Assembly (NCBI GenBank): GCA_047601445.1
Contig: JASGJH010000001.1
Span: 1,856,001-1,920,000, forward strand
DNA length: 64,000 nucleotides
DNA from: Myxococcales bacterium
Lineage (GTDB): Bacteria > Myxococcota_A > Polyangia > Polyangiales > DASUME01
Direction: 5' to 3'
Made by a program: the position numbers and the translations under genes. Every line of letters begins with the position of its first letter. Position 1 is the first letter of the stretch. Below the pieces are notes generated by a model. The model made no database searches, was not told the origin of the DNA, and saw nothing but the letters and a program-made list of their open reading frames with translations. Below are positions 8,040 through 58,309 of the stretch, piece by piece.

Positions 8040-8119
8040 AGCTAGGCGCCCAAAAGCAAGGCAGGCCACACCAGGTGCGTGGCCGCCGAGCTTGACCCGG
8101 CTCCGCCGAAAGAAGCGCC

Positions 8120-8921: not shown

Positions 8922-11900
8922 TTAGCTCGGAAGCGCGATGGGCTGCCCGCGCTCGAGCGCGCGCTCGGCCTGGGCGGCGTCGATGCCCATGCGCCGATGA
9001 CCATGGCGCTCAGCCAGCTCGCGCACGTGCCTCAGGGCGAGACTCGCGGCCTGCGCGCTACCCACTCGCTGCTCCGCGATGGCCAGCAGGTATTGCCCGT
9101 TGATGGAGTCCCACACATAGCCGTGATCGCCGGCGTAGCGCAGGGCCTCCCGCATGCGCTTCAACCCTTCTTCGGCGCCGAAGCTCAGGACGTCGAGAAA
9201 GCCGAGCAAACACACGTTCAACCAGTGCACCCGTGTGAAGCCGTGTTCCGTGGCGATATCCGAGCTCGAGCGCAGGGCCGCGAAGGCGCGCTTGTCTTCG
9301 TCCCCACGCAAGTAGAACTCGCCCAGCATGTGCGCCGCCACGGCGGCCTCGTGAGGCAAGCCGTACTCCTTGGCGAGCTCGAACGCCTTGCGGGCCGATT
9401 CGATGCGACCTTCGTGATCACCCGCCTGGTAGGCCACCAAGGCGCGCACGCGTTCGGTCTCCACTTCGAGGCGCTGGTCCTGGCGCGAAGCTGACAGCCG
9501 CTCGATCTCGGCCAGCGCTCGCCGCGCGTCCGCTTCTCGCCCCACGGCGGCGTAGGCCGGAGCCACCACCAACAGGCAGCGGAGCTGCGCCCCCGCGTCC
9601 TGGCTGGTGCGCGCGAGCTCGAGGGCGTGCCCCACGTGACGCAGTACGCTGTTGTATTCGCCACTGCGCGCGTGGGCCTCCGCCGCCGCCAAGGCCACGT
9701 CGCGCTCGAGCTCGCCGTCACCGCGCTTGCGCGCCACCCCCTGCGCACGCTCGAGCCAGGCGCGACCCTCTTCGGCGCGAGCCACCTTGAGGTAAAGGCG
9801 CCCGCGCATCATCGAGAAGCGCGCCACCAAGTCGTCCCGCCCTGCCTTGTCGGCCAGCTCGAGCGCGCCGGCGAGTCGCTCGGCCACGCCCTCCGCGGTG
9901 CGCGAGCGGTAGGCGAGCTCGCCCAGACGCGTGTAGAGGTCGAGCAGCAAGTCACCGTCGGAGGTACCGCTGCGGGTCAGCAAGTCCAGCGCCTCCAAAT
10001 AGGCATCCACGGCCGCGTCCGAGGCCTGCTCGGACTCCAGGCGCTGGGCAGCGCGCACCAAGAACGTGGCGGCGCGCTCGGCCTGCCCAGCCTCCCGATG
10101 GTGATAGGCGAGTCGGTCGGCGGCGGCCTCGATCTCGTTCGGGCGCAGGGCCTCGATGGCCTCGGCCACCGCCGCGTGCAGCGCCGGTCGCTCGTCGTGG
10201 GGGATCGAGTCGTAGAAGATCTCGCGCGCCAGGTCATGCGCGAAGGTGTACTCACCGGGTCCCAACGGCCGCACGATACCGCGCTCGTCCAGGACGCTGA
10301 GCGCCTGGCGCACACTGGCTTCGTCCTGCTGCGCGGCGCGCGCCAGGAGCTCGGGCGAGAAGCGCGGACCGCATGTCACGGCCAACTGCAGGATCACGCG
10401 ATGCGCGGCGTCCAGCTTGCCCACGCGCGAGGTCACCAGACCGCGCAGCGTGTTAGGTAGCTCCGAGACGTCGGCCGGGCGCGCGAACTCCACCACTCCG
10501 TCGCGCACCTCGATGGCGCCTAGCTCGCGCATGGCGGCCACGAGCTCCTCGAGATACAGCGGGTTGCCGCCGGAGCGCTGGCTCAGCTCGCGCACCAGCT
10601 CTTCGGGCACTTCATGAACGACCAAACGGTGGCGGCAGAAACGCGCCACGTCCTCGGCACTCAGCGGGCGCAGCACGAGCTCCGTGTAGGCAGGCGCCGC
10701 GTTCCAGGGGGTCTCGTCGGTGGGGCGATAGGTGAAGAGCGCCACCGCCTTCACGGGGAGCGGCGTGAGCACCATCTTGCCGAGCAGCTCGCGGCTCGGC
10801 GTGTCCATCAGCTCGGCACCATCCCAGGCGAAGACGGTCAGGCGATCCTGAGCCAACTTGTACGAGATGCGCACGAGCGCACCCATCAACATGGTGGTGT
10901 TGGTGACCGACGACGTGTGCAGACCAAGGCCCAACACGCGCCCCACGGCCTCGCGCTGAGGCGCCGAGAGCCCGAGCAGACGCAGGCGGTCGACCTTCTC
11001 GCGCAAGCGGCCCTCGGGCTCCATCTCCTCGATGCCGAGCACCACGCGCAGGATCTCCTGCACCGCATGGAAGGGGATGGTGCGCCCTTCGGGCGAGCAG
11101 GTGGCCACGTACAGGCCCACATCGTGGCCCGCATGGCTCAGCCGGCGCGCGGTCTCGGTGATGAGGCGGGTCTTGCCCGAGCCGGCCTCTCCGCGCACAC
11201 CCACGACTACCAGGCGCCCCTTGTTGGCCAGCGCCAAACACTCGCCCAAGAGACGCAGCTCCTGACGTCGGCCCACGAACTTGCCGTTGCCCTCGTCGGC
11301 CCGCCGCTCGCGCTCGATGACGCGCGGTCCGTCGGCCTGGGCAGGCGCCAGCTCGAAGCGACCACGCAGCAGCTTCGTGGCGGCGGGCGATGCGGCCACC
11401 TGCCCTTCGCTCACGCGCGCCAACCACTTGCGCGATTCCGTCCGCAGCGCCTCCAGCGGCGGGCCCACACGCAACTTGCCCTCGGCGTCGAGCAGGACCC
11501 GACCGCTGTGCACGATGGCGCGCACGCGCGCGGCCGTGTGAGTGCGCAGGATGCGCAGCGCACAGCGTGCCGCTCCTTGGGCGTCGCGACCGTCGGCCTC
11601 CGTGAGTCCGAACAGGACGAGCGTGGGTTCACTCGCGGAATTGCCCGGGAAAGCCGCACCGCCGAAGCGAGTTGCAAAGGACATCACCTCCGACCGAGGC
11701 AGACCGTCGAACGCCAAGAGCGAGACCTCGCGCCATTCTGAGCGCGGTGGGATGCCCGAACGCGCTGCGACGGGCACGCTGGAGGTGGTGCTGCGCGAGG
11801 GCACGCGCACGGGTGTGACGCCGCGCGCCGAGCTGACACCCGTGTTGGTGGGCTCGGAGAAGATCTCTTCGAGTCCACTGATGGGAGGCAGCTCCTGGAC

Positions 11901-37674: not shown

Positions 37675-39156
37675 TCAGTTGCACTCGACCGTGATGGTCT
37701 CGGAGCTGCTGTACATGCATTCGGGAACGACCCCGGACAGCACCGCCGTCACGTCGTGGAAGCCGCGCTGAGTGCAGGTCCAGCCCGTGGAGAGCCCGAC
37801 CTGCGGGCTGAACGTGCCACCCTCGCCGAACCATTCCACGGTCGCGTTCGGGTCGTCACCGAAGACGTAGGCCGTGAGCTGCAGCGTGTGACCGAGCAGG
37901 ATCTCGAGCGGGATGGCGTCGATGGAGCCGACCACGGGGCACATGATGACCGTCACCGCCAGGCACGAGTTGCTGCAGTCGTCGTAGTCGATGGCGTTGC
38001 CGTCGTCGCACTCTTCGCCCGCTTGCAAGATGCCGTCGCCACACGCGGGCAGCCTGCAAGTGTTGGTGCAGCCGTCGTTCGCGACCGCGTTGCCGTCGTC
38101 GCACTGTTCGCCGCTCTGCACTACGGCATCGCCGCACTCGATGGGCATGCAGTTGTTGGGGCAAGCATCGTTGTTCACGTGGTTGCCGTCGTCACAGGCT
38201 TCGCCGACTTGCACGATGCCGTCGCCGCAGGTGGAGGTGGTGGTCGCCGCCTTGCATTGGGTCGTGCAACCGTCGTTCTCCACGGCATTGCCGTCGTCAC
38301 ACTCTTCGACGCCCGTGAAGACAATGCCGTCGCCGCAGACGTTCCACCTGCAGTCCTCGGTACACTTGTCGTTGGGCGTTCCGGGGGTGTCACACTGCTC
38401 GATGCCGGTGGCGTTGCCGTCGCCGCACCCATGGTAGTCCTCGCATTCCACCTGCATCGAGAACGAATCGGTGCATCCGGCGAGTCCCGTCACGCTGGCC
38501 GTAATAGTGATAAGGCCGTGCATCGAGCACGTGAAGGCTGTCTGATGCAAGGGGCCGGTGGTCACTGGGGACGAAAAACTGCCGGCGGATGGGTAGACAC
38601 CTTGGGAAGACGTCCACGCGATCGAGCTGACACCGTGCGAGAGCCAGGCCTCGAACTGCATGGTCGCACCAAAGGCAACAAGGGACGGAAGGGCCTGCAG
38701 CGAGGTGACCAGGGGGCATGACTTGAAGTCGCCGTTGACGATGAGGTCGGCCTGATTGTCGCTCGCCTGACAGACCAGCAGCACGCTCACGCTGGTCGCC
38801 TTGTTGTCGAGCAGCGCGAAGGGCACCGATGCATTGCACGGCTCTCCGAAGGAGGTCGTCGCGGTCACGGCGAGCGTGTAGCCGCCCTGGACGGGCAGGT
38901 TGCCCACGCGGAAGGCGAGCTTGGAGCTGTTCTGGACCGGCACACTCCCGGTGCGGGTGAAGTTGGCGGGGCCGGTGATGATGTAGTGCAGCGAGCCGAC
39001 CTCGCTGTCATCCGGCAGCGTGAGCGCCGCGGAGAGTTGACCGGACCCGTGGGGGTGGTTCGTCCGCGTGCTGGGGTCGGAGGAGGAGCCGCGCGCGAAC
39101 TCGTCCCCGGGCGAGGAACTACAGGCCACCGCCAACGTACAGACCACTGCCGCCAT
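37675..39156 (-). CDS. Lipoprotein with myxococcal cysteine-rich repeats (DUF4215-type)
   Basis: Lipobox LAVAC; five CGDG...GE.CDDGN...DGC-type repeats; start uncertain (39156 or upstream). Confidence 0.85.
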   Translation of the reverse strand: MAAVVCTLAVACSSSPGDEFARGSSSDPSTRTNHPHGSGQLSAALTLPDDSEVGSLHYIITGPANFTRTGSVPVQNSSKLAFRVGNLPVQGGYTLAVTATTSFGEPCNASVPFALLDNKATSVSVLLVCQASDNQADLIVNGDFKSCPLVTSLQALPSLVAFGATMQFEAWLSHGVSSIAWTSSQGVYPSAGSFSSPVTTGPLHQTAFTCSMHGLITITASVTGLAGCTDSFSMQVECEDYHGCGDGNATGIEQCDTPGTPNDKCTEDCRWNVCGDGIVFTGVEECDDGNAVENDGCTTQCKAATTTSTCGDGIVQVGEACDDGNHVNNDACPNNCMPIECGDAVVQSGEQCDDGNAVANDGCTNTCRLPACGDGILQAGEECDDGNAIDYDDCSNSCLAVTVIMCPVVGSIDAIPLEILLGHTLQLTAYVFGDDPNATVEWFGEGGTFSPQVGLSTGWTCTQRGFHDVTAVLSGVVPECMYSSSETITVECN

Positions 39157-39487
39157 CAAGCGCAAGACCCGCACCACAGGAGCTCCTTGCTCGGCTCTCT
39201 CGAACCGCTGGGATGGAACTCTCGTAGACCTGTCCTGTGACACGACGGTGTGCGGCGCGAGCCTTTCTGGAAGCGTCTTCGAAGCGGCCATGTGGAGGGT
39301 CCTCGCGGAGCTCGCGGCGCCGGGAGGTTCGTGCGCGAACTTCGCGAAAGCAGGCTCACCCCACGATTGGTTCGCACACGTCATCTGCCGTGATCAGACG
39401 TTACCGAGCCGTCAAGGGAGCTCCACTCCGGCTCGCTAGACGGTGAGCAGCGCGACACCACCCTGGACGGGTCGCGAGGAGCAGCAC

Positions 39488-40777
39488 ATGACGAACAGCA
39501 TGTCTCGATACGGAGTCTTGGGCCTCTGCGCCGTGCTCGGCGCGCAAGTGGCGGCCGCGCAAGACAGCGCGCCCGAAGCCAAAGCCACCCTGGTGGGCTT
39601 CGCTTCGCTGCCCGCGGACACCTTCCAGCCCGGCCCCAACGCTGGCGGCAACGACGGAACCGGCAAGCCGATCAGCGCCAATGGTCGCACGGGTCCGTTC
39701 GCAGGCCAGCCGGTTCAGGGCTTCAGCGGCGTGCAGTTCGCACCCGGTTTCGGCAACTTCTGGTTCCTCTCGGACAACGGCTTCGGCAGCCAGGCCAACA
39801 GCGCCGACTTCCTCTTGCGCTTGCACCACGCGGAGCCTGACTTCGTGCACGGGTTGCGCCTGCCGGGCAAGACCATCCTGCTCGGCAAGGGCGGGGTGAA
39901 GCTAAAGGGGTTCGTGCAGTTCTCGGATCCAGGTCACTTGGTGCCCTTCCCGCTCGTGCGCGAAAACACGCCGGAGCGCTGGCTCACCGGCGCGGACTTC
40001 GACGTGGAATCCGTGGTAGTGGGGACCCGCGACGACTTCTGGATCGGCGACGAGTTCGGCCCCTTCATCCTGCACTTCAACGCCAAGGGCGAGCTGCTCG
40101 AGGCACCCGTCCCCACCCCCAACCTGAAGGCGGACCGCACGCTCGACGCGAACGCCTTCGTGCGCGCACCACAGAACCCCTATTTGCAGGGCGCGGCGCC
40201 GAATCTGGGCAGCTCCAAGGGCTTCGAAGGCATGGCCTACAGCCCCGACCGGCGCACCCTCTACCCGTTGCTCGAGGGCACGGTGGCAGGGGATCCGGCC
40301 AACGCGCTGCGCATCTACGAGTTCGACGTGAAGAGCTCCTCGTTCAAGCGCTTCGTGGGCTGGTATTCGGCCCCCGAGGGCCGCTCCATCGGCGACTTCA
40401 CGCCCATCAACGCGCACGAGTTCCTGGTCATCGAGCGCGACAACAACCAGGGTGCGGTCGCGGTCGTCAAAAAGATCTTCAAGATCGACATCGCGTCCGT
40501 CGATGCCAATGGCTTCGTGTCCAAGGAAGAAGTGGTGGACCTGCTGAACGTGCGAGACCCGCTGGACCTGAACAAGGATGGCAGCACGGTCTTCACCTTC
40601 CCGTTCCAGACCATCGAGGACGTCCTGGTGATCGACTCGGACACCATCCTGGTGGCCAACGACAACAACTATCCCTTCTCGCTGGGACGCGGGCCTGACA
40701 TCGACAACGACGAGATGATCCTGCTGAAGCTCAACCAGCACCTGCGCATCGACCCGCGTCTCTATCTGCACCAGTGA
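39488..40777 (+). CDS. Secreted phytase-like esterase (beta-propeller)
   Basis: SD GAGGAG; signal peptide; QGFSG, SDNGFG, DVES, DEFGP, GFEGMA, NDNNYP. Confidence 0.85.
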   Translation: MTNSMSRYGVLGLCAVLGAQVAAAQDSAPEAKATLVGFASLPADTFQPGPNAGGNDGTGKPISANGRTGPFAGQPVQGFSGVQFAPGFGNFWFLSDNGFGSQANSADFLLRLHHAEPDFVHGLRLPGKTILLGKGGVKLKGFVQFSDPGHLVPFPLVRENTPERWLTGADFDVESVVVGTRDDFWIGDEFGPFILHFNAKGELLEAPVPTPNLKADRTLDANAFVRAPQNPYLQGAAPNLGSSKGFEGMAYSPDRRTLYPLLEGTVAGDPANALRIYEFDVKSSSFKRFVGWYSAPEGRSIGDFTPINAHEFLVIERDNNQGAVAVVKKIFKIDIASVDANGFVSKEEVVDLLNVRDPLDLNKDGSTVFTFPFQTIEDVLVIDSDTILVANDNNYPFSLGRGPDIDNDEMILLKLNQHLRIDPRLYLHQ

Positions 40778-40810
40778 ATTGAAGAAGAGGGAGAGGGAGA
40801 GCGGGCACGG

Positions 40811-40829
40811 GCAAGGGCACGTTACGGGG
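40811..40829. repeat. Short dispersed repeat family B, copy 1 (within GGGCAC-type hexamer tandem)
   Basis: GCAAGGGCACGTTACGGGG resembles 62568-62587; lies between convergent genes. Confidence 0.45.
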
Positions 40830-40844
40830 ACGTCTTCCCGTCCA

Positions 40845-41723
40845 TCAATCCAAGTCGATAGGACCTTCCGGTAAGACTCGCGAGAACGCGGCCGCTTGGC
40901 TCTCGTCCTCGGCCCAGCCCAGGGCGGCTTCGATGGCGCGCTGCGAGCCCTCGAGCGAGGCCTCGTAGCGCTCCGGGAAGGTCCCCCAGGACCCCCCATA
41001 GACCTCGCCGCGCATGCGCTGCTTGTCGGGCTCGGGCGCCAGCAGCTTGCCCAGCGGGCTCGACACGAGCGCCACGTACTGACGGTAGCCTTTGGACCAA
41101 CCGCGCAGCTCGTCCCAACTGGGCGCCTTGCCGAGTGCGCGCGCGAGCCCCGCGTGGAACGCCTGCGCCAGGTGAGGTTCGCGGTGCACGGCGTCGGCAT
41201 CGACCGCGATGTGCTGCCCGAGCTCGCGGCGCCCCATGAAGTCGAAGCCCAGGCGCGCTTCGTGGAAGAGCACGCTGTGGTACTTCTCGACGTCGGTGTG
41301 ATGTCGGGCCGGATCGCCGCCGACCTTTTGCGCGCGCTCACGGGCCAGCTGATTGACCAGCGGATGCAGCGCACGGTCGATCGCCAGGTGCGAGACGTAG
41401 CCAAGGCACAGCGCCAGCACCTGCTCGGCTTGCTCGCGTGAGCTCGGACGCGCCCGCAAGCGGCGCACGTGCTCGAGGAGCTCGTGGGCCACCGCCACGG
41501 GCGTGGTGAGATGCAGCGCGGCTCCCCAGGCGGATGTGGCCGTGGGGCGCTTGAGCAGATAGCGCGCCACACCCAGCGGAAAGTGCTCGAAGTAGGGGAA
41601 GTCGATTACCAGGCAGCCGAGGCGACCGAGCTCGCGCAAAGGGCCCTGCCGAAAAGACGGCGGCACCTCGGAACGCGCCAAGGAATCGAGAAAGGCCGAG
41701 ATGTGGATGGCTTCGACGGGCAT
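40845..41723 (-). CDS. Zinc-dependent phospholipase C family protein
   Basis: N-terminal MP..A.H, LG...DFPY, GYVSHLAIDRALHPLV, HTDVE metal-ligand pattern. Confidence 0.75.
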   Translation of the reverse strand: MPVEAIHISAFLDSLARSEVPPSFRQGPLRELGRLGCLVIDFPYFEHFPLGVARYLLKRPTATSAWGAALHLTTPVAVAHELLEHVRRLRARPSSREQAEQVLALCLGYVSHLAIDRALHPLVNQLARERAQKVGGDPARHHTDVEKYHSVLFHEARLGFDFMGRRELGQHIAVDADAVHREPHLAQAFHAGLARALGKAPSWDELRGWSKGYRQYVALVSSPLGKLLAPEPDKQRMRGEVYGGSWGTFPERYEASLEGSQRAIEAALGWAEDESQAAAFSRVLPEGPIDLD

Positions 41724-46151: not shown

Positions 46152-48014
46152 GTGTCTCGCGAGGAACTGCCGCTGTCGTGGACCGGGCCCGTCTGGGCTG
46201 GGGCCGTACCGTTTGCTCTGTATGTGCTTACCGCGGGCGGGGTCACTTACTGGCTCGACAGTGCCGAGTTCACGGCGGCGGCCATTGATCTCGACATCCC
46301 CCATCCGCCCGGCCATCCAGTCGCGAACCTGTGGGGCAAGCTGTTCACGCTCCTGCCGTTCGGTCCCCTGCCCTTTCGGGTGGCCCTCGGCCAGGCCGCC
46401 GCCTGTGCCCTCGCGCTCGCTTGCGCGCAGCGCGCCATCGCACGCTCCCTGCGCTTCCTCGGCCTCTCCCAGCGGGCGGCGCAGTGGGTCGGCGTGGGCT
46501 CGGCATGGCTGCTCGCCGGTAGCTACGGCTTCTGGTTTCAGGCCGTGCGCCCCGAAGTCTATGCGCTGGCGGCCTTCCTGGTGTGCTTCGCGCTCGAACG
46601 CCTGAGTGTGCTGGCCACGCGCGCGCCCGAAGGCGAGCTCGACGCGCGTCCCTTCTACGCCGCCACGCTCGCCGTCGGGCTCGGCCTCGCCAATCACCAC
46701 TTCATCTCCGTGCTCGCCCTGCCGGCCTTCCTGTGGCCCTTCGTGGAGCTGACCCGTAAGCAAGGCCTGCGCGTCTTCGCGTGGGGCATGGTGACCGGCC
46801 TGCTCGGGCTCGGCGCCTACGTGTACCTGCCGCTGCGCGCCGCCCGTCTGCCTCCCATGGACCTCGGCCACCCGGTGACTCCGGGTGCGCTCGCCTGGGT
46901 GGTGACGGCCCGGGTCTATGCCAAGAAGATCGGCAGCGAAGCCATCCAACCGCTGAGCGAGCGCTTCGCCGACTTGGCGGTAATCCTGGTAGAGAACCTG
47001 CGCGTGCCGGCGCTGCTCGCGATGCTGGTGGGCAGCTACTTGCTGGCCCGCAGACAACGCACATGGCGGCTAGCGGCGCTGTGGCTGAGCACGGCCTTCG
47101 TCAACTTGGCGGGCCGCGCCTGGCTCAATCCCGTGCGCGCCAACCCCGATGTGCTTGGATACATGATGCCCGGCTTCGTGGCCGTGGTGGCGCTCGCAGC
47201 CTGCGGACTCGCGCTGCTGGTGGTGGAGCTTTCAGAGCGACTTCCGCCACGCGCCAAGCTGCTCGAAAATGGCCTCAGCGCGCTGGCCTTGGCGGCGGGG
47301 ATTTGGGCGCTCGCGCAGGGCTATGCGCCTGCGAGCCTGGCAAGCTTTCACGCACCCGACCTGTTCGATGAGATCCGCTACCGCGCGCTGCCCGAAGGCA
47401 GCCGTCTCGTGCTCACCACCCCGCAAACCGTGTTTCGTCACTTCGGAGCCGACGCCGTGGAGCACCTGCGTCCGGACGTGGCCATGGTGCCGCTGCCCTT
47501 TCTCGACTACGGTCAGGCCGGCGAGCAGCTCGCGCGCAAGCGCCCGGAGCTGGCGCGCGTCATCCGCGGCTTCAGCCGCAACCAAGCGCTGGATCGTCAG
47601 GCCCTGACAGAGCTCTCGCATGGTCACCGGCTGTTGATCGAGCTCGACACGACCTCGACGCTGCCGCTCTACCCGTGGCTCAGCCCGAGTGGTCTGTTCT
47701 ATGAGTTCCTCGCCACGCCTCCGAGCGACGAACAGGTGGAGCAGGCCGCCCAGCGACGCGCCGCGCTGCTCGATTGGTTGGGCGAAGCGATCGGCGCGGA
47801 AGCCGAAGAGCTCGAGACCAAGCGACAGCTGCTCTGGATCCACTACACGGACGCCCTCTTCCTCGCCCAGCGTGGACTGCGTGCGCAGGCTCTGCGCGCG
47901 GCGGCGCGTGGGCTCTCACTCGAGCCTCAGGCCCGTGAGCTCGCGGCGCTGGCGGAGGCACTCGAGCAGGGCCAGGGGCCGCTCGACATCAGCCCGTTCC
48001 TGGTGCGCCTTTGA
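46152..48014 (+). CDS. DUF2723 / TMEM260-like membrane glycosyltransferase
   Basis: WLDSAEF...LDIPHPPGHP, FWFQA..PEVY, GLGLANHH, Y.YLPLRA signature motifs. Confidence 0.85.
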   Translation: MSREELPLSWTGPVWAGAVPFALYVLTAGGVTYWLDSAEFTAAAIDLDIPHPPGHPVANLWGKLFTLLPFGPLPFRVALGQAAACALALACAQRAIARSLRFLGLSQRAAQWVGVGSAWLLAGSYGFWFQAVRPEVYALAAFLVCFALERLSVLATRAPEGELDARPFYAATLAVGLGLANHHFISVLALPAFLWPFVELTRKQGLRVFAWGMVTGLLGLGAYVYLPLRAARLPPMDLGHPVTPGALAWVVTARVYAKKIGSEAIQPLSERFADLAVILVENLRVPALLAMLVGSYLLARRQRTWRLAALWLSTAFVNLAGRAWLNPVRANPDVLGYMMPGFVAVVALAACGLALLVVELSERLPPRAKLLENGLSALALAAGIWALAQGYAPASLASFHAPDLFDEIRYRALPEGSRLVLTTPQTVFRHFGADAVEHLRPDVAMVPLPFLDYGQAGEQLARKRPELARVIRGFSRNQALDRQALTELSHGHRLLIELDTTSTLPLYPWLSPSGLFYEFLATPPSDEQVEQAAQRRAALLDWLGEAIGAEAEELETKRQLLWIHYTDALFLAQRGLRAQALRAAARGLSLEPQARELAALAEALEQGQGPLDISPFLVRL

Positions 48015-48163
48015 AATGAGGTCTCGAGAGAACGGACCCCCGTGCTGCTCGTGCACACGGCGTGAACGCACCTCGGCGACCTTCGTCCCACATCGAGCTG
48101 CCCGGATGGCACGCTCCGGCACAGCGCCACGGTGAGAAACACGCCAATTTAAGCGCGCTTTCG

Positions 48164-48179
48164 TGGTACACGCATTGCT
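48164..48179 (+). promoter_or_regulatory. Sigma54 (-24/-12) promoter upstream of the dikinase-like lipoprotein
   Basis: TGGTACACGCATTGCT matches TGGYAY-N5-TTGCW, about 100 bp upstream of ATG 48282. Confidence 0.65.
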
Positions 48180-48281
48180 CTCCTCTGTGGATGGATGCCG
48201 CGCCCGTTCGCCCGTTGTGTGGGCACGTCAAGTGCGGAGGCCCGGCCTGGCCGAGCGTCACAGCGGGTCCTGGTGTCACCG

Positions 48282-51269
48282 ATGCTCGCGAAACCCATTC
48301 TCCCCTGGCTTGGATGCGCGCTGATCGCTCTCTCGGGTGGGACGCTCGGCGCCTGCTCGTCCAGCTCGAAGCATCACGGTCGTCCGCTCGATGCGGGCGC
48401 CTGTGAGGCGTTGGGGCTACGCATCAACGAAGCCGCCAGCGACAACGACGGCATCAACGTCGACGAAGCGGGCGAGACCGACGACTGGGTCGAGCTCATC
48501 AACGCAGGCAGTGAGCCCATCGACCTCGGTGCGTTTCGCATCAGCGACGGCAGCGAAGATGCCCTGCGCCTGCCCCATGACACGCTGGCCCCCGGCGCCG
48601 CGGTGCTGGTGTGGGCCGACGAGGAGCCGCAGGGGCCCTATCACGCACCCTTCAAGCTGAGCGCCTCGGGTGATCGCGTGGTGCTGACCCATGATGAATG
48701 TGGCGAGGTCGATCGGCTCGAGCTGCCCGCTCTTCCCCTCAACCAGAGTCTCGCGCGACTCCCCGATGCCACCGGCACGGGCGTCGTCTGCCGCTACGCC
48801 ACGCCCGGGCGCAGCAATGGAGACCGCTGCGAGCCGCCAGCCCCGCCATCGTTGCCCGACGATGCGACCTTCCGCTCCTTCACCTGGTCGCCCGTGCTGA
48901 CCCATGCCGACGGCCCCTTGCTGATCAGCGAGCTCGCGCTCAACCCAGCCTCCTTCATCGAGCTCTACAATCGTGGCGCGGATCCGATCGCGCTCGCGGG
49001 GATGTCCTTGCGTATCGCGGCCTCGGGTCCGGGCGTGGGCCTGCCCAGCGCCGTCGAGGGGCTCGCCATCGCACTGCCCGCGCAGGAGCTCGCGCCAGGT
49101 TCGCGCCTGCTGGTGCAGGTCGACACCAGTGGTCTCGAGCCCAATGAGTTCGAGGGCGTGGTGACCCTGTTCGACGCCGCGGGCGCCCCACTCGACCGCG
49201 TCGATTTCATGCGCTGGCCTGCGGATGCGGTGTTGGCCCGCGTCCCGGACGACTCCTCGCACTTCACGTTCTGCGAGGGCGGCAGCCCTGGGGCCTCCAA
49301 CGTGACCTGTCGCCAACTCGCAGCGCGTGAGGTCGGGGATCGCACGCGGCACCTGCGCACGCCCGCCGACTTCGTGAAGCTTGCGCAGGGCGGCACCGAG
49401 GTCGCGCAGCTGGGGGTCAAGTTCGTCATCGACATGGCAGCCGGCGACACCGTGCATTTCCTCGGGACCGAGCGCTGGGCCCTGCACTACACTTTCATCC
49501 GCGAGCGCATCTACGGCGACCCGCCGCTCGATCGCTGCGACCCGGTACAGGAGCACGCGTTCAATCAGGGGTGGTACACGTTCAGCCAGAGCGAGTACTT
49601 CCGCGCCGAAGGCCGGCGCTTCTTGCTCGGCACCCTCGTGCAGCACGCGAATGGCGCGCGCACGGTGGAGTTCGCAGCGGGCGACGAGATTAGCCCCGCG
49701 CAGATGCAGCGGGCCTTGTTCGCGGTGGCAACGCACACCGAGGATCCGACCGTCTGGTCGTTGCGTCCCATCGATCAGAGCCAACTCGCACGCATGCGAG
49801 AGATCGACGGCCTCGCCCCCATCGTGGGCCCCAATGCGCCGTTTCAGAACGTGAGCTACCAGCCGCTCACTCAAACCGTGGGCTTCGGGGTGCTGCGCTT
49901 CGTGCCTTCAGATCAGCTGGAGCAGGAACCGGTGCCGCTGCACAGCCTGGTGATCACCGACGCGGTGCCCAACGATATCGCCTTCGTGGAGGGCCTGATC
50001 ACGGAGGCCTTCCAAACGCCGCTGGCGCACGTGAATGTCTTGAGCCGCGCGCGTGGCACACCGAACATGGGCCTCGCCGGCGCGCGCCAGCACCCGCGCC
50101 TCGCGCCCCTCCTGGACAAGCTAGTGCGACTCGAGGTGGGTCCCTCGGACTTCTCGATCCGGGAAGCCTCCGCCGAGGAAGCGGCTGCGTTCTGGTCGGC
50201 CCGAACCAGTTCAAGTGAGCTCGTGACACCTCCGCGCGATCTCGCGCCCCGCGGCGTGCTGCCACTGAGCGAGCACGGCCTGACCGACGTGCCCGCCATC
50301 GGCGCCAAGGCCGCTCAGTTCGCCGAGCTTTACCGGGTGAGCGAACGGCCCTTTGGTTGTCCTACGGACACCGTGCCGCTCGGGGTCCCCGCGCAGGCCT
50401 TCGCCGTCCCCTTCGCGCATTATGCGGAGCACTTCGAGCAGAGCGGCGCGCGGGCCCTGCTGGAAAGCCTCCTGGCCGATCCCAACTTCATGGCGCTGCC
50501 GGATGCCCACGAGGCGGGCCTGGCAGCGCTGCGCGACGCCATCATGCGGCAGCCGGTGGAGCCCGCACTCTTGACGAGTGTCACCGAAGCCGTGCGCGAG
50601 CGCTTCGGCAAGCAACGCGTGCGCTTTCGCAGCAGCAGCAACACCGAGGACTTACCCGAGTTCAACGGCGCCGGGCTGCACACGTCCACGAGCGCCGAGC
50701 TCGACGATCCGGAGCTCCCCGTGGCCGACGCCATGCGCACGGTCTGGGCGAGCCTGTGGAACACGCGCGCCTTCGACGAGCGGGCCTACGCCAATATCGA
50801 TCAGAGTCAGGTAGCGATGGCCATCCTGGTGCACGAGGCGAGTCGCAGCGAAGCGGCCCAGGGGGTGGCCGTAAGCCGCAACCTGATGCACGTGACGCGC
50901 GCAGACATGTACTTCGTGGACGCCCAAATTGGCGAAGCCAGCGTGACCAACCCGGCACCCGGCGTGGTCACGGAGCAGACCATCTACCAGTGGCCGCCCC
51001 GCACCCCGGAGCTCACGCGCCTCTCACACAGCAGCCTCACGGAGCGCGACGTGTTGAGCGCACAGGAACTGCGCGACGTGGCCTGCGGGCTCAAGGCCGT
51101 GCACCAGCACTTCCAACCCTTGCTCGATCCGGAGCAGACCAACCGTCTGTTCGCCATGCAGATCGAGTTCAAGCTCGAGCACGCCACACGGCGTTTGGTG
51201 ATCAAGCAGGCCCGGCCGCAGCCGTTCAGAGGCATCGACGTCCCGGCGGACTGCCGCGAGTTCGAGTAG
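48282..51269 (+). CDS. Exported lipoprotein: two lamin-tail domains + phosphohistidine-swivel-like domain + PEP/pyruvate-binding (ATP-grasp) domain
   Basis: Lipobox LGAC; LRINE...DWVELIN and LISE...FIELYN (LTD); LITEAFQTPLAHVNVLSRARGTP; IGAKAAQF, RSSSNTED...GAGL, VWASLW, IEFK, KQARP. Confidence 0.85.
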   Translation: MLAKPILPWLGCALIALSGGTLGACSSSSKHHGRPLDAGACEALGLRINEAASDNDGINVDEAGETDDWVELINAGSEPIDLGAFRISDGSEDALRLPHDTLAPGAAVLVWADEEPQGPYHAPFKLSASGDRVVLTHDECGEVDRLELPALPLNQSLARLPDATGTGVVCRYATPGRSNGDRCEPPAPPSLPDDATFRSFTWSPVLTHADGPLLISELALNPASFIELYNRGADPIALAGMSLRIAASGPGVGLPSAVEGLAIALPAQELAPGSRLLVQVDTSGLEPNEFEGVVTLFDAAGAPLDRVDFMRWPADAVLARVPDDSSHFTFCEGGSPGASNVTCRQLAAREVGDRTRHLRTPADFVKLAQGGTEVAQLGVKFVIDMAAGDTVHFLGTERWALHYTFIRERIYGDPPLDRCDPVQEHAFNQGWYTFSQSEYFRAEGRRFLLGTLVQHANGARTVEFAAGDEISPAQMQRALFAVATHTEDPTVWSLRPIDQSQLARMREIDGLAPIVGPNAPFQNVSYQPLTQTVGFGVLRFVPSDQLEQEPVPLHSLVITDAVPNDIAFVEGLITEAFQTPLAHVNVLSRARGTPNMGLAGARQHPRLAPLLDKLVRLEVGPSDFSIREASAEEAAAFWSARTSSSELVTPPRDLAPRGVLPLSEHGLTDVPAIGAKAAQFAELYRVSERPFGCPTDTVPLGVPAQAFAVPFAHYAEHFEQSGARALLESLLADPNFMALPDAHEAGLAALRDAIMRQPVEPALLTSVTEAVRERFGKQRVRFRSSSNTEDLPEFNGAGLHTSTSAELDDPELPVADAMRTVWASLWNTRAFDERAYANIDQSQVAMAILVHEASRSEAAQGVAVSRNLMHVTRADMYFVDAQIGEASVTNPAPGVVTEQTIYQWPPRTPELTRLSHSSLTERDVLSAQELRDVACGLKAVHQHFQPLLDPEQTNRLFAMQIEFKLEHATRRLVIKQARPQPFRGIDVPADCREFE

Positions 51270-51332
51270 CGCGCTCGCGCGAGGCGCCGAGCACGTGACC
51301 TCCTGCTCGCCAAACATGCTAGGAAGGCTCCC

Positions 51333-51494
51333 ATGCAATGGGATCCCGCCGCTGAGGCACGCGTCAAGAAGGCCCCCTTCTTCATCCGTCCCTTCATCAA
51401 GAGCCGGGCCGAGAAAGAGGCCAAGGCGCGCAACCTGGAGCGCGTCACCGAGGCCCTGCTCGACGAGCTGAAGTCCAAGGAACACCGCGGCTGA
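51333..51494 (+). CDS. 53-aa stand-alone PCP_red-like (BchB/ChlB C-terminal-type) protein
   Basis: MQWDPAAEARVKKAPFFIRPFIKSRAEKEAKARNLERVTEALLDELK matches the W..EA...L..P.FVR...E..A...VT pattern; below the ORF-track cutoff. Confidence 0.8.
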   Translation: MQWDPAAEARVKKAPFFIRPFIKSRAEKEAKARNLERVTEALLDELKSKEHRG

Positions 51495-51507
51495 CGCAGC
51501 GCGCGGA

Positions 51508-51624
51508 AGGTCGCGTGACCTCTTTCGAGAAGACGCGAGTGCATTTCGTGAGCGACGCGAACCTCGCGGTGCGGTGGGTCCCGGGCTTTGCCGCAACGGG
51601 CGGGGAGGTCGCGTGGCCTCCCCG
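51508..51624. repeat. Dispersed intergenic repeat family A, copy 2 plus an extra hairpin core
   Basis: 51547-51624 aligns with 23408-23490; an isolated core AGGTC-GCGT-GACCT at 51508-51521. Confidence 0.8.
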
Positions 51625-51628
51625 ATTT

Positions 51629-52057
51629 TCAAGGCAGCGTGACGTTGCCGCGTGCGTCGAGTGGCCAGAACGGGTTGAACGCCACCTCCCACAGGTGACC
51701 GTCCGGATCGGCGAAATAGCCGGAATAGCCGCCCCAGAATACCTCCTGGGCGGGCTTCAGGATCTTGGCTCCGGCGCGCTCGGCAACCTGCAGTGCGGCG
51801 TCGACCTCGGCCTTGGATCCGTAGTTCTGGGCCAGTGACACACCCGAGAAAGGCGCGGGCGGTGAAGCCGGCAGGTGCGCGTCCTTGGCGAGCTCCTCGC
51901 GGCTCCAGAGAGCGAGCACCACGGCGCCCGCCTGGATGAACACCACGTGCTCGTTGCCGGCGCTCGACGCCTGAAAGCCGAGTCCATTGCAGTAGAAGTC
52001 GCGGGCGCGGGCAAGGTCGCTCACGCCCAGGGTCACGACGCTCAGTCTTGCTTGCAT
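51629..52057 (-). CDS. VOC/glyoxalase-family protein
   Basis: RLSVVTLGVSDL..A..FY, FWGGYSGYFADPDGHLWEVA; real start ATG 52057, the track ORF is over-extended. Confidence 0.92.
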   Translation of the reverse strand: MQARLSVVTLGVSDLARARDFYCNGLGFQASSAGNEHVVFIQAGAVVLALWSREELAKDAHLPASPPAPFSGVSLAQNYGSKAEVDAALQVAERAGAKILKPAQEVFWGGYSGYFADPDGHLWEVAFNPFWPLDARGNVTLP

Positions 52058-52182
52058 GGGTTCGGGATAGCAGGCCGCCGCGCGGGTGTCCCTACACTCT
52101 CGTGTCCTCGTCCTGGAAAGACGTAGGCGTGCGCGTGCGCGGTCCGCGCCGCAGCGGTAGCTGGACCGGTTCGTGACACCCC

Positions 52183-52956
52183 CTACTGCAGATCGATTCC
52201 CGCGCGCTTCGCCAGCTCCATCTCGATCAGTTCGTGCAAAGCCCCCTCGACCTCGCGACGCATGGCGCGCACCAACTTGAAATCGCTCTGCTGCGTGGGG
52301 GTGGCGCGCGGCGCGATGGCCTCGCCGAACACGAAATGCACCTGCACGCGGTGGGGAATGGGCAGGATGCGCTTGGGCAGCGGGATGGGGAATCCGCCGC
52401 GACCCAGCCACCTGCGCCCTCTTGCATAAGGGTCGCCCACGAAGTCGAACAGCTCGTCGGTGCCCACCGAGGCCAGCGGCACGATGGGCGCCTGGTTCCG
52501 GATGGCGGCGTGGATGAAGCCATAGCGCTGGCCCCACAACAGCTGGTAGCGCAGCTCGCGGGGCTTCACGGCTTCGCGCAAGCCACCGGGAAGAACCAAT
52601 ACGAGTTCGTCGCGGGACAACAAGCGATCCACGTTCTCCTTGGTGCCATCGACCGTACCCACGCCCGAAGCCAAACGACGTACGAACGGCACCTTCCACC
52701 AGAGATGCTCGCCGAGCACCCAGACCGGGCGCCCACGCGCGCGCCAGACCGCCGCCATCGCGAACACCACGTCCCAACCGAAGGCATGATTGGCTACGAT
52801 CAGCGCGCGGCCCGAGGGCAGGTGTTCGAGCCCCTCCACGTGGATATCCAGGCGATCGGCCACGCGCTCGACCACGTCGTAGAAGCGCTCCGCCAGCGCC
52901 GGCTGGAAGGCCTGGAACGCCTGCTTGTGCTGGGACTCGAAGCCATCGATGCTCAT
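52183..52956 (-). CDS. Lysophospholipid acyltransferase family protein
   Basis: HxxxxD motif NHAFGWD, LPGG.REA, APIVP. Confidence 0.88.
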   Translation of the reverse strand: MSIDGFESQHKQAFQAFQPALAERFYDVVERVADRLDIHVEGLEHLPSGRALIVANHAFGWDVVFAMAAVWRARGRPVWVLGEHLWWKVPFVRRLASGVGTVDGTKENVDRLLSRDELVLVLPGGLREAVKPRELRYQLLWGQRYGFIHAAIRNQAPIVPLASVGTDELFDFVGDPYARGRRWLGRGGFPIPLPKRILPIPHRVQVHFVFGEAIAPRATPTQQSDFKLVRAMRREVEGALHELIEMELAKRAGIDLQ

Positions 52957-53024
52957 TGGACGACACTCTCGGGGCGAGAACTCCCGCGTCTCCAGGGAAG
53001 TAATCGCGCGCGGCGCGCCGCCAG

Positions 53025-56000
53025 TCAGTTGGTGGTCTGGGAGCCCCGCGAACGCCCCATGCCCGGCGGAAACACACTGTCGTTACGCTGCTCGCCCAAG
53101 AACACGCGCAGCAGCGCAGGCAGCAACACCAGACCCAGCAGGGTGCTCGAGACCATGCCGCCGATGACCGCGGTGGCCAACGGACGTTGCACCTCGCTGC
53201 CGGCCGACGACGACACCGCCATGGGCAGAAATCCGATGGACGCCACGGTGGCAGTGAGCAGCATCGGACGCAGCACCGCCACGGCGCCGTGCACCAGCGG
53301 CTCCTCGTCACGGCCTTCCTGCATGCGCCTGCGGATCTCGCTCGCCATCACTACGCCGTTGAGCACCGCGATACCGCACAGGGCGATGAACCCGACCGCC
53401 GCGGGAATGCTGAAGGGCATGCCCCGTAGCTTGAGCGCGACCACGCCGCCGATCAGCGCGAAGGGCACGCCCGAGAACACGGCGCCCGCATAGCGCACGT
53501 TGCCGAAGGTCATCATCAGCATCACGAAGATGATCACGAGGGCCACCGGCAGCACCACGCCCAGGCGCGCACTGGCACGCTCGAAGTTCTCGAACTGCCC
53601 TCCCCAGGTGATCCAGTAGTCTTCGGGCAACGGCACGCCGGCCGCGACGCGCTCCTTGGCGTCCTGTACGAAGCTCAATAGGTCGCGTCCTCGAATGTTC
53701 ACGTCGATGCGCAGGCGCCGCGACATGCTGTGACGGCTGATCTGCGCGGGTCCGTCCTCCTCGGCGATGTTCGCCACCTGCGCGAGCGGCACCAGCTTTC
53801 CGTCGCGCGAGCCGATGGGCAGGCGACCGAAGTCCTCGGGGCGCTGCGTCAGAGGCGGCAACATCACGCGCAGCTCGTAGCGGCGTTGATCCTCGAACAC
53901 GTAGCCTACCCGGCGTCCCTGCCGGCTGGCCTGCACCGCCGAGAGCACCTCATCGGCCGGGATGCCGAGTCGCGCCAGACGCCCACGGTCGGCGCGGATC
54001 TGCAGCATGGGCAACCCCAACGCACGCTCCACGCGCACGTCGCCCGCGCCCGGGGTTTTCTGAAGAATGCGCCCGATGCGACGGCCGAGGTCGGCAAGCT
54101 TGTGCAGGTCCGTCCCGAACAGCTGGATGGCCACGTCGGCGCGCGAGCCCGAGATCATCTCGTTGGTACGGTCCTCGATGGGCTGGGAGATGGAGACGAA
54201 GGTGGCCGGCACCTCGCGCTCGATGGCGCTCTTCATCTGCTCGCCCAGGGCGTCGAGATCGTGGGCGGTGGTCCACGTCTCCTTGGGCCGCAGCTTTACC
54301 AGCAGGTCGCTATTGTCCATGCCCACCGGGTCGACGGCGACCTCCGCGCGTCCCGTCATGGACAGGGTGGTCTCCACCTCGGGAAAGCGCTTGAGCACTT
54401 TCTGCACGGCCAGATCGAGCTTCCTGGCCTCGCCGAAGCCCACGCTCGGAATGCGCCGCATGGCGACCACGATGTCGCCCTCGTCGATGCGCGGCACGAA
54501 GTCCGCACCGAGCGACGCCCCCACCGGCACGGAGAGCAAGAGCGCCGCGCAGGCCACCGCGATCAGCAGCCCACGCCGCTCGAGCGCGCTGCGCACCAGT
54601 CGCTCGTAAGGGGCATCGAGGCGCGACAGCCAGCCGCCGTGGTGGCCCGTCTCGCGCAGCAAGCGTGCGGCGCCGGCGGGAAACGTGAACAGCGAGAAGA
54701 TCACGCTGCCGAACAGGGCCAGCGCCATGGTGGTGGCCATGGGCCGGAACATCTTGCCTTCGGTGCCCTCGAGCGTGAGCAGCGGCACGTAGACCAGCAA
54801 GATGATCAGCACCGAGAAAACCACTGGCCGCGTCACCTGCTTGAGACTGTCGCGGATCAAGGCGGGTCGGTTGTGGGAGGTCACCTGGCTCAGCGCGAGC
54901 TTGGCGATCACCGCCTCCGCCATCACGATGGGTCCATCCACCAAGAGCCCGAAGTCGATGGCGCCGAGGGACATCAAGCTGCCGGTCACGCCGAGCTGCA
55001 ACATCCCGATCAGCGCGATCAGCATCGACACTGGAATGCCCAGCGTCACCAGCAAGCTGGCGCGCCAGGAGCCCAAGAAGACCAGAATCACCAGGCCCAC
55101 CAAGAGCGCGCCCTCCACCAGGTTGGTGGCCACGGTCTTGAGCGTACGCTCGATGAAGCTCGCGCGATCATACACGGTCTCGATCCGGGCTCCCTGGGGT
55201 AGCTTCTTGCGCAGCTTCTCGATCTTCGCCTTCACGGCCTGCACCACGTCGCGCGAGTTCTCGCCCACCAGCATCAACACCGTGCCGGTCACGGCCTCGT
55301 GCGTGCCGTCCTGGGTGACCACGCCCTGCGGCAGCGCCGCTCCCAGACGTGCGTCTCCCAAGCGCTTGATCTGCACGGGGGTCCCATCGGCGTCGGAGGC
55401 CACGACCACGTCGAGGATCTCGCCGAGGTTCTTGAGCTGCGCCTCACCGCGGATCACGAGCTGCTCGCTGCCGCTCTCGATCCAGCCCCCGCCCACGTTG
55501 GCGTTGTTGCGCTCGAGCGCCTCGAGCACCTGGCTCAGCGTCAGACGGTGCGCCGCCAGCTTGGCCGGGTCGAGCACCACCTGGTACTCCTTGGCGGCCC
55601 CGCCCATGGCGTTCACTTCGATGACCCCGGGGACGCTGCGCAGCGCGGGGATCAGCTCCCACTGCAAGAGCCCGCGCAGTTCCATCGGCGAGTGTCGATC
55701 GCTCTCCAGCACGAACTGATAGATCTCACCGAGTCCCGTGGACACAGGCGCGAGCTGAGGTTTCCCGAACTCGGGCGGGATATCGGCCTCGATCTCACGC
55801 AGGCGCTCCGAGACGATCTGGCGTGCGAACCAGATGTCCATGCTCTCCTTGAAGACCACCGTCACGGCGCTCAGGCCGCTGCGGGTCACGGATCGCAATT
55901 CGTCGAGGCGCGGAAGACCGTTGAGGCCCATTTCCACCGGGAAGGTGACGAAGCGCTCCATCTCCTCGGCGGACAACCCGGGGGCCTCGGTGAGCACCAC

Positions 56001-56818: not shown

Positions 56819-58309
56819 ATGATCCGCAGCTACTGGTTCCTTGGGTTGACCGCACTGGCCCTTTCATCCTGCGCCCACGACCCCGCCTCTTCGGGGCGGG
56901 GCACGATGGACGACGAGGCGACCGCCGGGGACGGGGACTCCGACTCGAACGCGGGCGACGGGGACAACGCTGATGGGGACAACGGTGATGGGGACGACGG
57001 TGATGGGGACGACGACGGCGACGGCGACGGCACGAGCAACGGCGACGGAGACGGCGATGCGCCGAGCGCTGGGCCGCGAGTCGACAATCCGTTCCTGAAC
57101 GCCAAGGGGTACGTGAACCCGGAGTGGCGAGCCAAGGCCATGGGCGAGCCGGGCGGCGACCGCGTGGCCAACACGCCCACCGCGGTTTGGCTCGACCGCA
57201 TCGCGGCCATCGCGGGCACCCCGAACAGCGCATCCAACGGTCCGATGGGCCTAGCCGATCACCTCGACGCGGCGCTGGCGCAAAAGGCCGATTACGCCCA
57301 GTTCGTCATCTACAACCTGCCTGGACGCGACTGTTCGGCGCTCGCCTCGAACGGTGAGCTCGGCCCCGACGAGCTGCCACGCTACAAGTCGGACTACATC
57401 GACGCGATTGCCAGCATCATGGGCAAACCCAAGTACGCAGCCCTGCGCATCGTGAACGTGATCGAAGTGGACTCGCTGCCGAACCTGGTCACCAACACCA
57501 GCGTGGCGAAATGCGCGCAGATGAAGACCAACGGTGCCTACGTCGCGGGAGTGGCCTATGCCCTCCAAAAGTTGGGCGCCCTCACCAACGTATACAACTA
57601 CGTGGACGCCGGGCATCACGGCTGGCTCGGCTGGGACACCAACATGAACCCGTCGGCCGAGCTCTTCCATCAAGTCGCGATGCAGGCGGGCATTCATACC
57701 GTGCAGGGATTCATCACCAACACGTCGAACTATTCGGCCCTGCACGAGCCATTTTTCAGCGCCGAAACGCAGCTCAATGGGCAATCCGTACGTCAAGCCA
57801 AGTGGGTGGACTGGAACTTCTACGTGGACGAGCTGTCGTTCGCCCAGGCGTTTCGCCAGAAGCTCGTCTCCCTCGGGTTCGACGACACCATCGGCATGCT
57901 CATCGACACCTCGCGCAACGGCTGGGGCGGGGCGGCACGCCCGAGCAAAGCCAGCACCTCGACCGATGTGAACACCTTCGTGGACCAGTCCCGTATCGAC
58001 CGCCGCGTGCATGCCGGCAACTGGTGCAATCAATCCGGAGCGGGCTTGGGCGAGCGCCCGAAAGCGGCCCCCGCGGCAGGCATCGACGCCTATGTCTGGA
58101 TCAAGCCGCCCGGCGAGTCTGACGGCTCCAGCAGCGCCATCCAGAACAGCGAGGGTAAGGGCTTCGACCGCATGTGCGATCCCACCTATGGCGGCAATGA
58201 GCGCAACGGCAACAGCGCCACCGGCGCGCTTCCCAATGCCCCCCTCGCCGGGGCCTGGTTTTCGAGCCAGTTCCGCCAGCTGATGGACAATGCTTATCCC
58301 CCGCTGTGA
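56819..58309 (+). CDS. Glycoside hydrolase family 6 (cellobiohydrolase-like) lipoprotein with Gly-Asp linker
   Basis: Lipobox LSSC; AVWLDRI, YNLPGRDC, IEVDSLPN, DAGHHGWLGW, IDTSRNG, GNWCNQ, WIKPPGESDG. Confidence 0.93.
   Translation: MIRSYWFLGLTALALSSCAHDPASSGRGTMDDEATAGDGDSDSNAGDGDNADGDNGDGDDGDGDDDGDGDGTSNGDGDGDAPSAGPRVDNPFLNAKGYVNPEWRAKAMGEPGGDRVANTPTAVWLDRIAAIAGTPNSASNGPMGLADHLDAALAQKADYAQFVIYNLPGRDCSALASNGELGPDELPRYKSDYIDAIASIMGKPKYAALRIVNVIEVDSLPNLVTNTSVAKCAQMKTNGAYVAGVAYALQKLGALTNVYNYVDAGHHGWLGWDTNMNPSAELFHQVAMQAGIHTVQGFITNTSNYSALHEPFFSAETQLNGQSVRQAKWVDWNFYVDELSFAQAFRQKLVSLGFDDTIGMLIDTSRNGWGGAARPSKASTSTDVNTFVDQSRIDRRVHAGNWCNQSGAGLGERPKAAPAAGIDAYVWIKPPGESDGSSSAIQNSEGKGFDRMCDPTYGGNERNGNSATGALPNAPLAGAWFSSQFRQLMDNAYPPL

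Follow-up and report, generated by a model that had tools for sequence, protein, structure and literature searches.

A gene on the forward strand of a 64,000-nucleotide stretch from a Myxococcales bacterium (GenBank assembly GCA_047601445.1, contig JASGJH010000001.1, positions 1,856,001 to 1,920,000; the whole stretch is hereafter the window) encodes a 995-residue protein that we predict to be an exported, histidine-dependent dikinase, which has the domain order of the plant glucan, water dikinases (GWDs) and acts outside the cytoplasm. We give this reading a probability of about 0.55. It stands on what is demonstrated below, namely how the domains fold and are arranged, that His583 and the residues for nucleotide and Mg binding do not vary, and that export signals are found family-wide. 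A first-pass annotation, made from the letters alone, had described a lipoprotein signal, two lamin-tail domains (LTDs), an unassigned middle region and a C-terminal ATP-grasp domain in a protein with no phosphoenolpyruvate (PEP)-binding barrel. Translation and Pfam searches confirmed this layout, with every feature that it had listed lying where it had been placed, including the motifs GAKAA, RSSSNTED..GAG, VWASLW and KQARP in the translated protein and, within the quoted His segment, a CAC codon for the histidine (Table 1).

Domain architecture and conserved residues

The ATP-grasp domain is recognized by the Pfam model PPDK_N (PF01326) with 85.9 bits, well above its cut-off of 27, the match spanning positions 2-309 of the 328 in the model, and in Foldseek comparisons the C-terminal third of the protein matched rifampicin phosphotransferase (Rph; 5hv1, E 2.6e-14), PEP synthase (PEPS; 2ols, 9.4e-13) and PPDK (1kbl, 1.3e-6). 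The N-terminal domains matched the lamin Ig-fold structures 1ufg, 2lll and 1ifr. No Pfam match to the PEP-utilizers_C barrel was found in the 995-residue protein, and residues 345-660 gave no Pfam match even at E 10 and no match in NCBIfam.

An AlphaFold2 (AF2) model of the full-length protein, built with 40 homologs, reached a mean pLDDT of 82.5. Because the loop that bears His583 was poorly modelled in it, residues 345-665 were modelled separately with 63 homologs, and in this sub-model (pLDDT 89.2) His583 lies in the first turn of a helix (sub-model residues 239-247). In a VIA comparison with 48,161 PDB representatives the seven top matches were phosphohistidine swivel domains, all of them at sub-model positions 181-285/300, i.e. 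residues 525-645 of the protein; Foldseek agreed, matching the sub-model to Rph with an E value of 3.6e-4 and a probability of 1.0. Both comparisons support the earlier proposal that the His segment folds as a swivel domain of the PEP-utilizer type, with the catalytic histidine of this phospho-carrier superfamily opening a short helix. A profile of residues 345-665 gave only chance-level matches among PDB sequences, and the structural neighbours found in the atlas were exclusively members of the family itself.

His583 is invariant in three alignments (40/40, 63/63 and 17/17 sequences). Of the 99 distant representatives with at least 600 residues, 95 have a histidine at this position, and a gap, E, P and Y are found once each in the others; the histidine is retained in 68 of 71 long fused relatives, so that the residue picked out by the first-pass annotation proves invariant or nearly so across the family alignments. 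The surrounding Q578, P580, R591, T593 and P594 are likewise conserved in 17/17 sequences, as are K676, R783, S785, E789, D790, G798, E962, Q976, A977, R978 and P979 of the ATP-grasp domain, in an alignment that includes 16 relatives of only 31-40% identity. Positions of the K676, R783, E962, Q976 and R978 type are nucleotide and Mg ligands in PPDK and Rph; the G-x-K lysine, the RSS arginine and the E...Q-x-R of the C-terminal strands are all present, and the DIEW..QsRP stretch of PEP synthase aligns with the MQIEfk..KQARP strands of the window protein. Within the middle domain, H402 is conserved in all 87 non-gap rows among the 99 representatives, Y439 in 87, R445 in 82 and D468 in 86. We infer that this set forms an acceptor or phosphotransfer site, a role that is kept as putative because the domain matched no fold. 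The cysteines C419, C693, C935 and C991 are also invariant, but are confined to the LTD subfamily.

The description of potato StGWD1 (PMC13553574) gives it CBM45 modules at residues 11-129 and 343-464, a central domain at 483-926, a His domain at 931-1050 with the catalytic His992 on a short exposed helix, and an ATP domain at 1069-1387 that is nearer to Rph than to PPDK; the central domain is all-helical, with 20 helices in 444 residues (PDB 9HA9/9QVI). Set beside this, the order LTD, LTD, middle, His and ATP-grasp parallels that of StGWD1, as the first-pass annotation had claimed: binding-type modules are followed by a central, a His and a C-terminal ATP-grasp domain, neither protein has a PEP/pyruvate barrel, and the ATP domain leans to Rph over PPDK in both (by Foldseek in the case of the window protein). 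The two differ in their binding modules, which in GWD are CBM45 and in PWD CBM20, whereas Pfam shows LTD alone in the N-terminal third here. They differ also in the central domain, which in the window protein is an alpha/beta domain of ~180 residues, with several beta-strands plus helices in the confident AF2 model, rather than an all-helical one of ~440 residues. Moreover, the window protein carries a lipoprotein export signal, whereas GWD is located in plastids. The GWD central domain (PDB 9HA9) was not among the listed Foldseek and VIA matches, lists that the His domain dominated. In the likeness to GWD that had been proposed, the order, the swivel His domain and the ATP-grasp domain hold, whereas the binding modules and the central domain do not. 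By the tests run, the protein would work as a GWD-type relay but is not a member of GWD, because it is without CBM45 or CBM20 and without the all-helical central domain. The His motif of relatives from Planctomycetes, ELSHVAVRT..RRGTPNA, resembles the LSHVSVRAR-type motif that the first-pass annotation gave for GWD. A profile search of proteins of at least 1419 residues recovered bacterial fusions only and no plant GWD, which is weak evidence as to a closer kinship with plant GWD or PWD.

The protein also falls outside the other dikinase families. Rph of Listeria (5hv1, 5fbs) is cytoplasmic and runs ATP-grasp, substrate domain, His, whereas the order here is the reverse, namely middle, His, ATP-grasp; the NCBIfam model NF041857 gives 37.6 bits against a cut-off of 999, and its weak, partial NCBIfam matches involve Rph and the prodigiosin ligases PigC/RedH. 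PEPS and PPDK (PF01326 + PF00391 + PF02896) share with it the ATP-grasp family, the nucleotide/Mg motifs and the phospho-carrier fold, but the protein lacks their barrel, has a permuted order, is not recognized at the sequence level by PF00391 and reaches 71 bits with the NCBIfam PEPS model, whose cut-off is 598; the public name 'phosphoenolpyruvate synthase' is therefore a misnomer. An N-terminal LTD is also carried by other exported proteins, the ExeM-type nucleases and the LTD-CotH kinases, whose catalytic domains are unrelated to those here, and the long LTD-CotH proteins (PF08757) likewise pair an LTD with an ATP-dependent phosphotransferase. The LTD of ExeM follows the signal sequence and is dispensable for extracellular DNA degradation, its role being given as unknown (PMC6085458). 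Among the sequences P0365 and P0393-P0405 the LTD is very often paired with a CotH kinase in long, apparently exported proteins; judged by these sequences, CotH seems to be a second kind of ATP-dependent phosphotransferase that is sent outside the cell.

Distribution, export signals and fusion partners

A word-indexed protein search gave 1206 proteins at E ≤ 0.001. Among the 120 matches listed, 112 combine LTD and PPDK_N in ~1000 residues and 8 (638-874 residues) have PPDK_N only; named matches are from Sorangium and Polyangiales and are annotated as 'PEP/pyruvate-binding domain-containing protein'. An exhaustive HMMER search with residues 350-660 against 1.84 billion representatives recovered 1178 clusters, defined at 50% identity, at E ≤ 0.001, with 447 of them at ≤ 1e-10 and 67 at ≤ 1e-30. 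The members include the Bacteroidota Aquipluma nitroreducens and a Prolixibacteraceae metagenome-assembled genome (MAG), with proteins of 810 residues named 'phosphoenolpyruvate synthase', Desulfobacterales MAGs (1162 residues, with LTD) and Marinicellulosiphila megalodicopiae (991 residues). Sixteen shorter relatives, at 31-40% identity, contain the whole module of middle, His and ATP-grasp domains without LTDs. This core is found in at least five bacterial lineages, i.e. Myxococcota, Cellvibrionaceae, Bacteroidota, Desulfobacterales and Planctomycetes, and constitutes a large unstudied superfamily.

Species-representative genomes contain 125 stretches encoding relatives, nearly all from Myxococcota, with three in MAGs labelled Cellvibrionaceae. 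In the phylum of the window the profile of residues 345-665 matched 166 of 401 genomes sampled, representing 118 of 255 genera; shorter frames account for many of these matches, and up to five matches were found per genome in Myxococcota. The genome from which the window comes carries a second copy, at C1:5196-5199 kb. Matches also occur in 16 of the 151 genomes that form the family of one Cellvibrionaceae-labelled MAG, 13 of them with the long LTD type, and one of these long genes sits on a single contig of 5.3 Mb. The copies from Myxococcota and those labelled Cellvibrionaceae are ~49% identical, and this degree of sequence identity suggests that the gene may have moved between the phyla. 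In one Cellvibrionaceae-labelled MAG the homolog at L081:7900-8700 shifts frame after the first LTD, which may reflect a frameshift, a pseudogene or an assembly error.

The lipoprotein export signal claimed by the first-pass annotation is present as LGAC at residues 22-25, behind a hydrophobic stretch and in agreement with the lipobox pattern [LVI][ASTVIG][GAS]C. It appears to be a trait of the family: a lipobox-like cysteine behind a hydrophobic stretch was found in 30 of 40 homologs by strict regular expression and in 8 more by eye, the other two being truncated at the N-terminus. By eye it was also recognized in all 16 short relatives, immediately before the module, in the paralog of the same genome (FLIAC-G), in 3/3 loci of the Cellvibrionaceae-labelled MAGs and in 5/5 further loci from that genome family, a sixth fetched locus having given no gene after filtering. 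Low-GC relatives open instead with ordinary signal-peptide-like stretches. Two other routes of export were considered and dropped. Export by the type IX secretion system in Bacteroidota had been suggested by a Por_Secre_tail label given to a related cluster in the protein atlas, which proved to denote sub-cut-off N-terminal hits, at residues 81-143, and not a C-terminal sorting signal; for Tat export of a pre-charged enzyme, no consistent twin-arginine motif was seen in the N-termini.

The partners to which the module is fused are consistent with an extracellular location. Among 71 relatives of at least 1419 residues FG-GAP/VCBS repeats occur in 48 and dockerin in 12, and fn3, Calx-beta, cadherin-like, Big and Lcl_C domains are also found; those with FG-GAP/VCBS repeats, where named, are called 'VCBS repeat-containing protein [Planctomycetes bacterium]', and 12 long fused paralogs share one contig of 9.18 Mb. 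One relative, P0290 (1420 residues), runs from a signal peptide through a GH11 xylanase, CBM2, CBM10 and serine-rich linkers to LTD, LTD, middle, His and ATP-grasp, and is 50% identical to the window protein over the full length of the module. It is a pointer toward work on the plant cell wall, not a proof of it.

Further arrangements were seen among the long relatives. The Planctomycetes-type proteins P0305-P0357, of ~1800 residues, join the dikinase module to FG-GAP/VCBS repeats, often with a dockerin at the C-terminus, and many of them have repeats of the DCNGNG..ED type at their N-termini. P0289 (3327 residues) and P0263 (3227 residues) have fn3, Calx-beta and Ig-like domains, the former with two His motifs, at 555 and 2033, and the latter with two PPDK_N stretches by Pfam, which suggests that such proteins may chain two complete dikinase modules. 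Elsewhere, in locus L107 of one genome from the family of the Cellvibrionaceae-labelled MAG, a GH11-CBM60 gene (6987-8507, minus strand) lies directly downstream of an LTD-dikinase gene (8866-11832, minus strand), on the same strand, which echoes P0290; and at another locus of this family a CotH kinase gene (L109:4639-6105) is three genes away from a homolog of the dikinase gene.

Gene, putative promoter and neighbourhood

The coordinates of the gene, its promoter motif and the domains of its product are collected in Table 1.

Table 1. The predicted dikinase gene of the window and the features of its product, in window coordinates
Feature	Position	Strand	Basis or remark
Sigma54-type promoter motif TGGTAC-N5-TTGCT (TGGTACACGCATTGCT)	48164..48179	+	118 nt 5' of start codon
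Coding sequence	48282..51269	+	995 residues plus stop; stop-free translation; N-terminus MLAKPILPWLGCALIALSGGTLGAC-SSSSK
Signal peptide with lipobox L-G-A-C, Cys25 then Ser (predicted lipoprotein)	48282..48356	+	Motif reading
Lamin-tail domain 1, residues 46-146	48417..48719	+	Pfam PF00932, E 1.1e-19
Lamin-tail domain 2, ~residues 213-331	48918..49274	+	Second Pfam LTD stretch; limits approximate, from AF2 beta-strands
Uncatalogued alpha/beta middle domain, residues 345-524; predicted acceptor site	49314..49853	+	AF2 sub-model
Phosphohistidine swivel domain, residues 525-645	49854..50216	+	
His583 codon CAC, predicted phospho-carrier	50028..50030	+	Invariance; helix N-terminus in sub-model
ATP-grasp nucleotide-binding domain (PPDK_N), residues 671-980	50292..51221	+	Pfam E 4.1e-24

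The GC content at third codon positions is 0.85 in the reading frame of the gene, which is consistent with a real gene in a high-GC genome. An alternative, longer open reading frame (ORF) starts at ATG 48195. The start at 48282 is probably the better one, because ATG 48195 sits only 16 nt past the last base of the sigma54-type motif (48179) and gives no signal peptide. Nowhere else on either strand of the 64 kb window is the strict pattern TGG[CT]A[CT]N5[TC]TGC[AT] matched, and the motif conforms to the sigma54-dependent form TGGCAC-N5-TTGCW, in which ten bases separate GG and GC; a scan of 47900-51700 showed no sigma70-like site. Strict matches lie within 400 nt upstream in 8 of 74 homolog loci, against ~0.1 expected by our own estimate. 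The earlier claim that the gene has a sigma54 promoter of its own is in this way upheld at the level of sequence, where the motif is real and recurrent upstream of homologs.

The neighbourhood had been cited together with the proposed action on an envelope or extracellular polymer: a TMEM260-like/DUF2723 glycosyltransferase gene (46152-48014, plus strand; PF11028, E 3e-24) lies upstream and a GH6 cellulase gene is found at 56819-58309. In tblastn searches of 80 homolog loci with the window's neighbours, the glycosyltransferase, GH6, glyoxalase and rpsA were each found at none, AcrB at 1, GntR at 2 and DUF4215 at 1. With 0/80 loci for both the glycosyltransferase and the cellulase, that argument fails and a partnership with either was dropped. 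Pfam scans of flanking genes covered 115 ORFs at 29 loci and, within the family of genomes around the Cellvibrionaceae-labelled MAG, 26 ORFs at 5 loci and 2 more close to a sixth; a few families, e.g. SGL, cobW, hydantoinase and protein kinase, were seen two or three times. The neighbourhood yields no clue to the substrate, and the gene behaves as a stand-alone unit.

Some further features of the region were recorded. Gene boundaries downstream of the dikinase are ambiguous: a 560-residue ORF at 51629-53311 (minus strand), with a glyoxalase domain only at its C-terminal end, overlaps a 257-residue ORF at 52183-52956 (minus strand) that has the better codon bias. Upstream, at 37675-41723, genes for likely secreted proteins are clustered: one product has DUF4215 repeats, another is a phytase-like esterase (PF13449, E 4.7e-55), and a further ORF weakly resembles zinc phospholipase C. 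Just outside the window, ~27 kb beyond the gene, a 672-residue frame at G000:C1:1933602-1934696 (minus strand) has PPDK_N followed by PEP-utilizers, i.e. the classical order, without the barrel, and would be a separate short dikinase of the Rph-like or PEPS-like kind.

Proposed mechanism, alternatives and implications

From the intact relay a mechanism can be proposed for the predicted dikinase. If the protein works as PPDK, PEP synthase, Rph and GWD do, ATP would be bound by the ATP-grasp domain, His583 would attack its beta-phosphate with the release of AMP, and water would take up the gamma-phosphate. A pivoting of the swivel domain would next bring the beta-phosphate to an acceptor held on the middle domain by H402, Y439, R445 and D468, with the LTDs likely serving as a stalk or targeting module. 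Our leading guess for this acceptor is an extracellular or envelope polymer.

Several points weigh against a dikinase acting outside the cytoplasm. Bacteria are not known to maintain an ATP pool outside the cytoplasm, and the phosphotransfers described for the periplasm draw on other donors. The His loop (residues 576-592) has a pLDDT below 50 in the full-length AF2 model, and no match of the His domain to PF00391 was obtained at E 10 or in a genome-wide search. The middle domain (residues 345-524) matched no solved fold, in Foldseek and VIA lists that were filled by the His domain and so barely tested it. The call of a lipoprotein signal is a reading of the motif; P0290 is the only GH11-CBM2-CBM10 fusion among 48 matches and comes from one contig; and no broadly recurring neighbour was seen in the flank scans or the 80 tblastn loci, listings that were read without a formal tally. 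As to the donor, published abstracts describe bacteria as releasing ATP and sensing it in the periplasm, by analogy with which the use of extracellular nucleotides by the enzyme is conceivable.

The same relay could instead serve an envelope phosphotransferase for small molecules, of the Rph kind, acting on a diffusible antibiotic, xenobiotic or signal. Listeria Rph is the best structural match for both the ATP-grasp and the His domain, the weak partial NCBIfam matches are to Rph and PigC/RedH, and the gene is solitary, as many resistance genes are. We nevertheless regard this as improbable, given that Rph places its ATP-grasp domain first and its His domain last, that the middle domain shows no convincing match to the rifampin-binding domain of Rph, and that the adhesion-type and carbohydrate-binding fusion partners fit polymers or surfaces as targets; an extracytoplasmic supply of ATP would, moreover, still be required. 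The ATP problem would vanish if the donor were polyphosphate, pyrophosphate or a phosphorylated polymer, or if the enzyme consumed or salvaged extracellular nucleotides, and the dikinase reaction of PPDK is indeed reversible; but the invariant adenine-nucleotide and Mg residues of the ATP-grasp domain argue for a nucleotide substrate, and neither a polyphosphate nor a phosphatase gene was found to recur beside the gene in the flank scans, so that we hold this possibility to be just as improbable as the Rph-like one.

It would also solve the ATP problem if the protein were an outer-membrane lipoprotein, passed to other cells by vesicles or membrane exchange and using the ATP of the recipient there. 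Lipoprotein cargo is known to be transferred between myxobacterial cells, and the multiple copies, up to five matches per Myxococcota genome and 12 paralogs on one Planctomycetes contig, would fit such a role. This we consider very improbable, as the flank scans showed no recurring adjacent immunity-like gene, the sequences are conserved (50-60% identity across families) and not polymorphic, the family extends to Cellvibrionaceae, Bacteroidota and Planctomycetes, and the GH11/CBM and dockerin fusions indicate an extracellular workplace. That the protein is no extracellular enzyme at all, being either cytoplasmic with a misread signal or a pseudoenzyme that merely binds, is hardly credible despite the motif-only reading of the lipobox, the longer ORF from ATG 48195 and the public naming of relatives as 'phosphoenolpyruvate synthase', since an N-terminal hydrophobic stretch plus cysteine occurs in every clade examined, the relatives that are not lipoproteins open with ordinary signal-peptide-like stretches, and all catalytic residues are invariant, which is rare in pseudoenzymes.

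We therefore retain the exported dikinase with GWD domain order as the best explanation. Literature searches on GWD in bacteria and on myxobacterial pyruvate-binding proteins found no published bacterial exported GWD-like dikinase, and the public names 'phosphoenolpyruvate synthase' and 'PEP/pyruvate-binding' are misleading. A 2026 review treats prokaryotes as being without known glucan-phosphorylating machinery (PMC13666283); with the layout of GWD seen in a bacterial protein, prokaryotic glucan phosphorylation becomes a testable question. The compact size of these dikinases (650-1000 residues) offers openings for structural work and for the enzymatic phosphorylation of polymers.

The biology of the bacterial envelope is built on the assumption that ATP is absent beyond the inner membrane, and here a superfamily keeps the full relay from ATP to histidine behind export signals. 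Should these enzymes work at the place to which they are exported, the relay must be supplied there by nucleotides or by some donor not yet known, and either would be new. In its widest form, which we put forward as a speculation that is unlikely to hold, this would be an overlooked superfamily of extracellular dikinases, bacterial counterparts of GWD, that loosen insoluble polymers, such as plant cell-wall polysaccharides, for attack by phosphorylating them at the cell surface with the help of extracellular nucleotides, and it would be a candidate source lineage of GWD. If this were true, phosphorylation that loosens polymers would be a new principle in their degradation by microbes.

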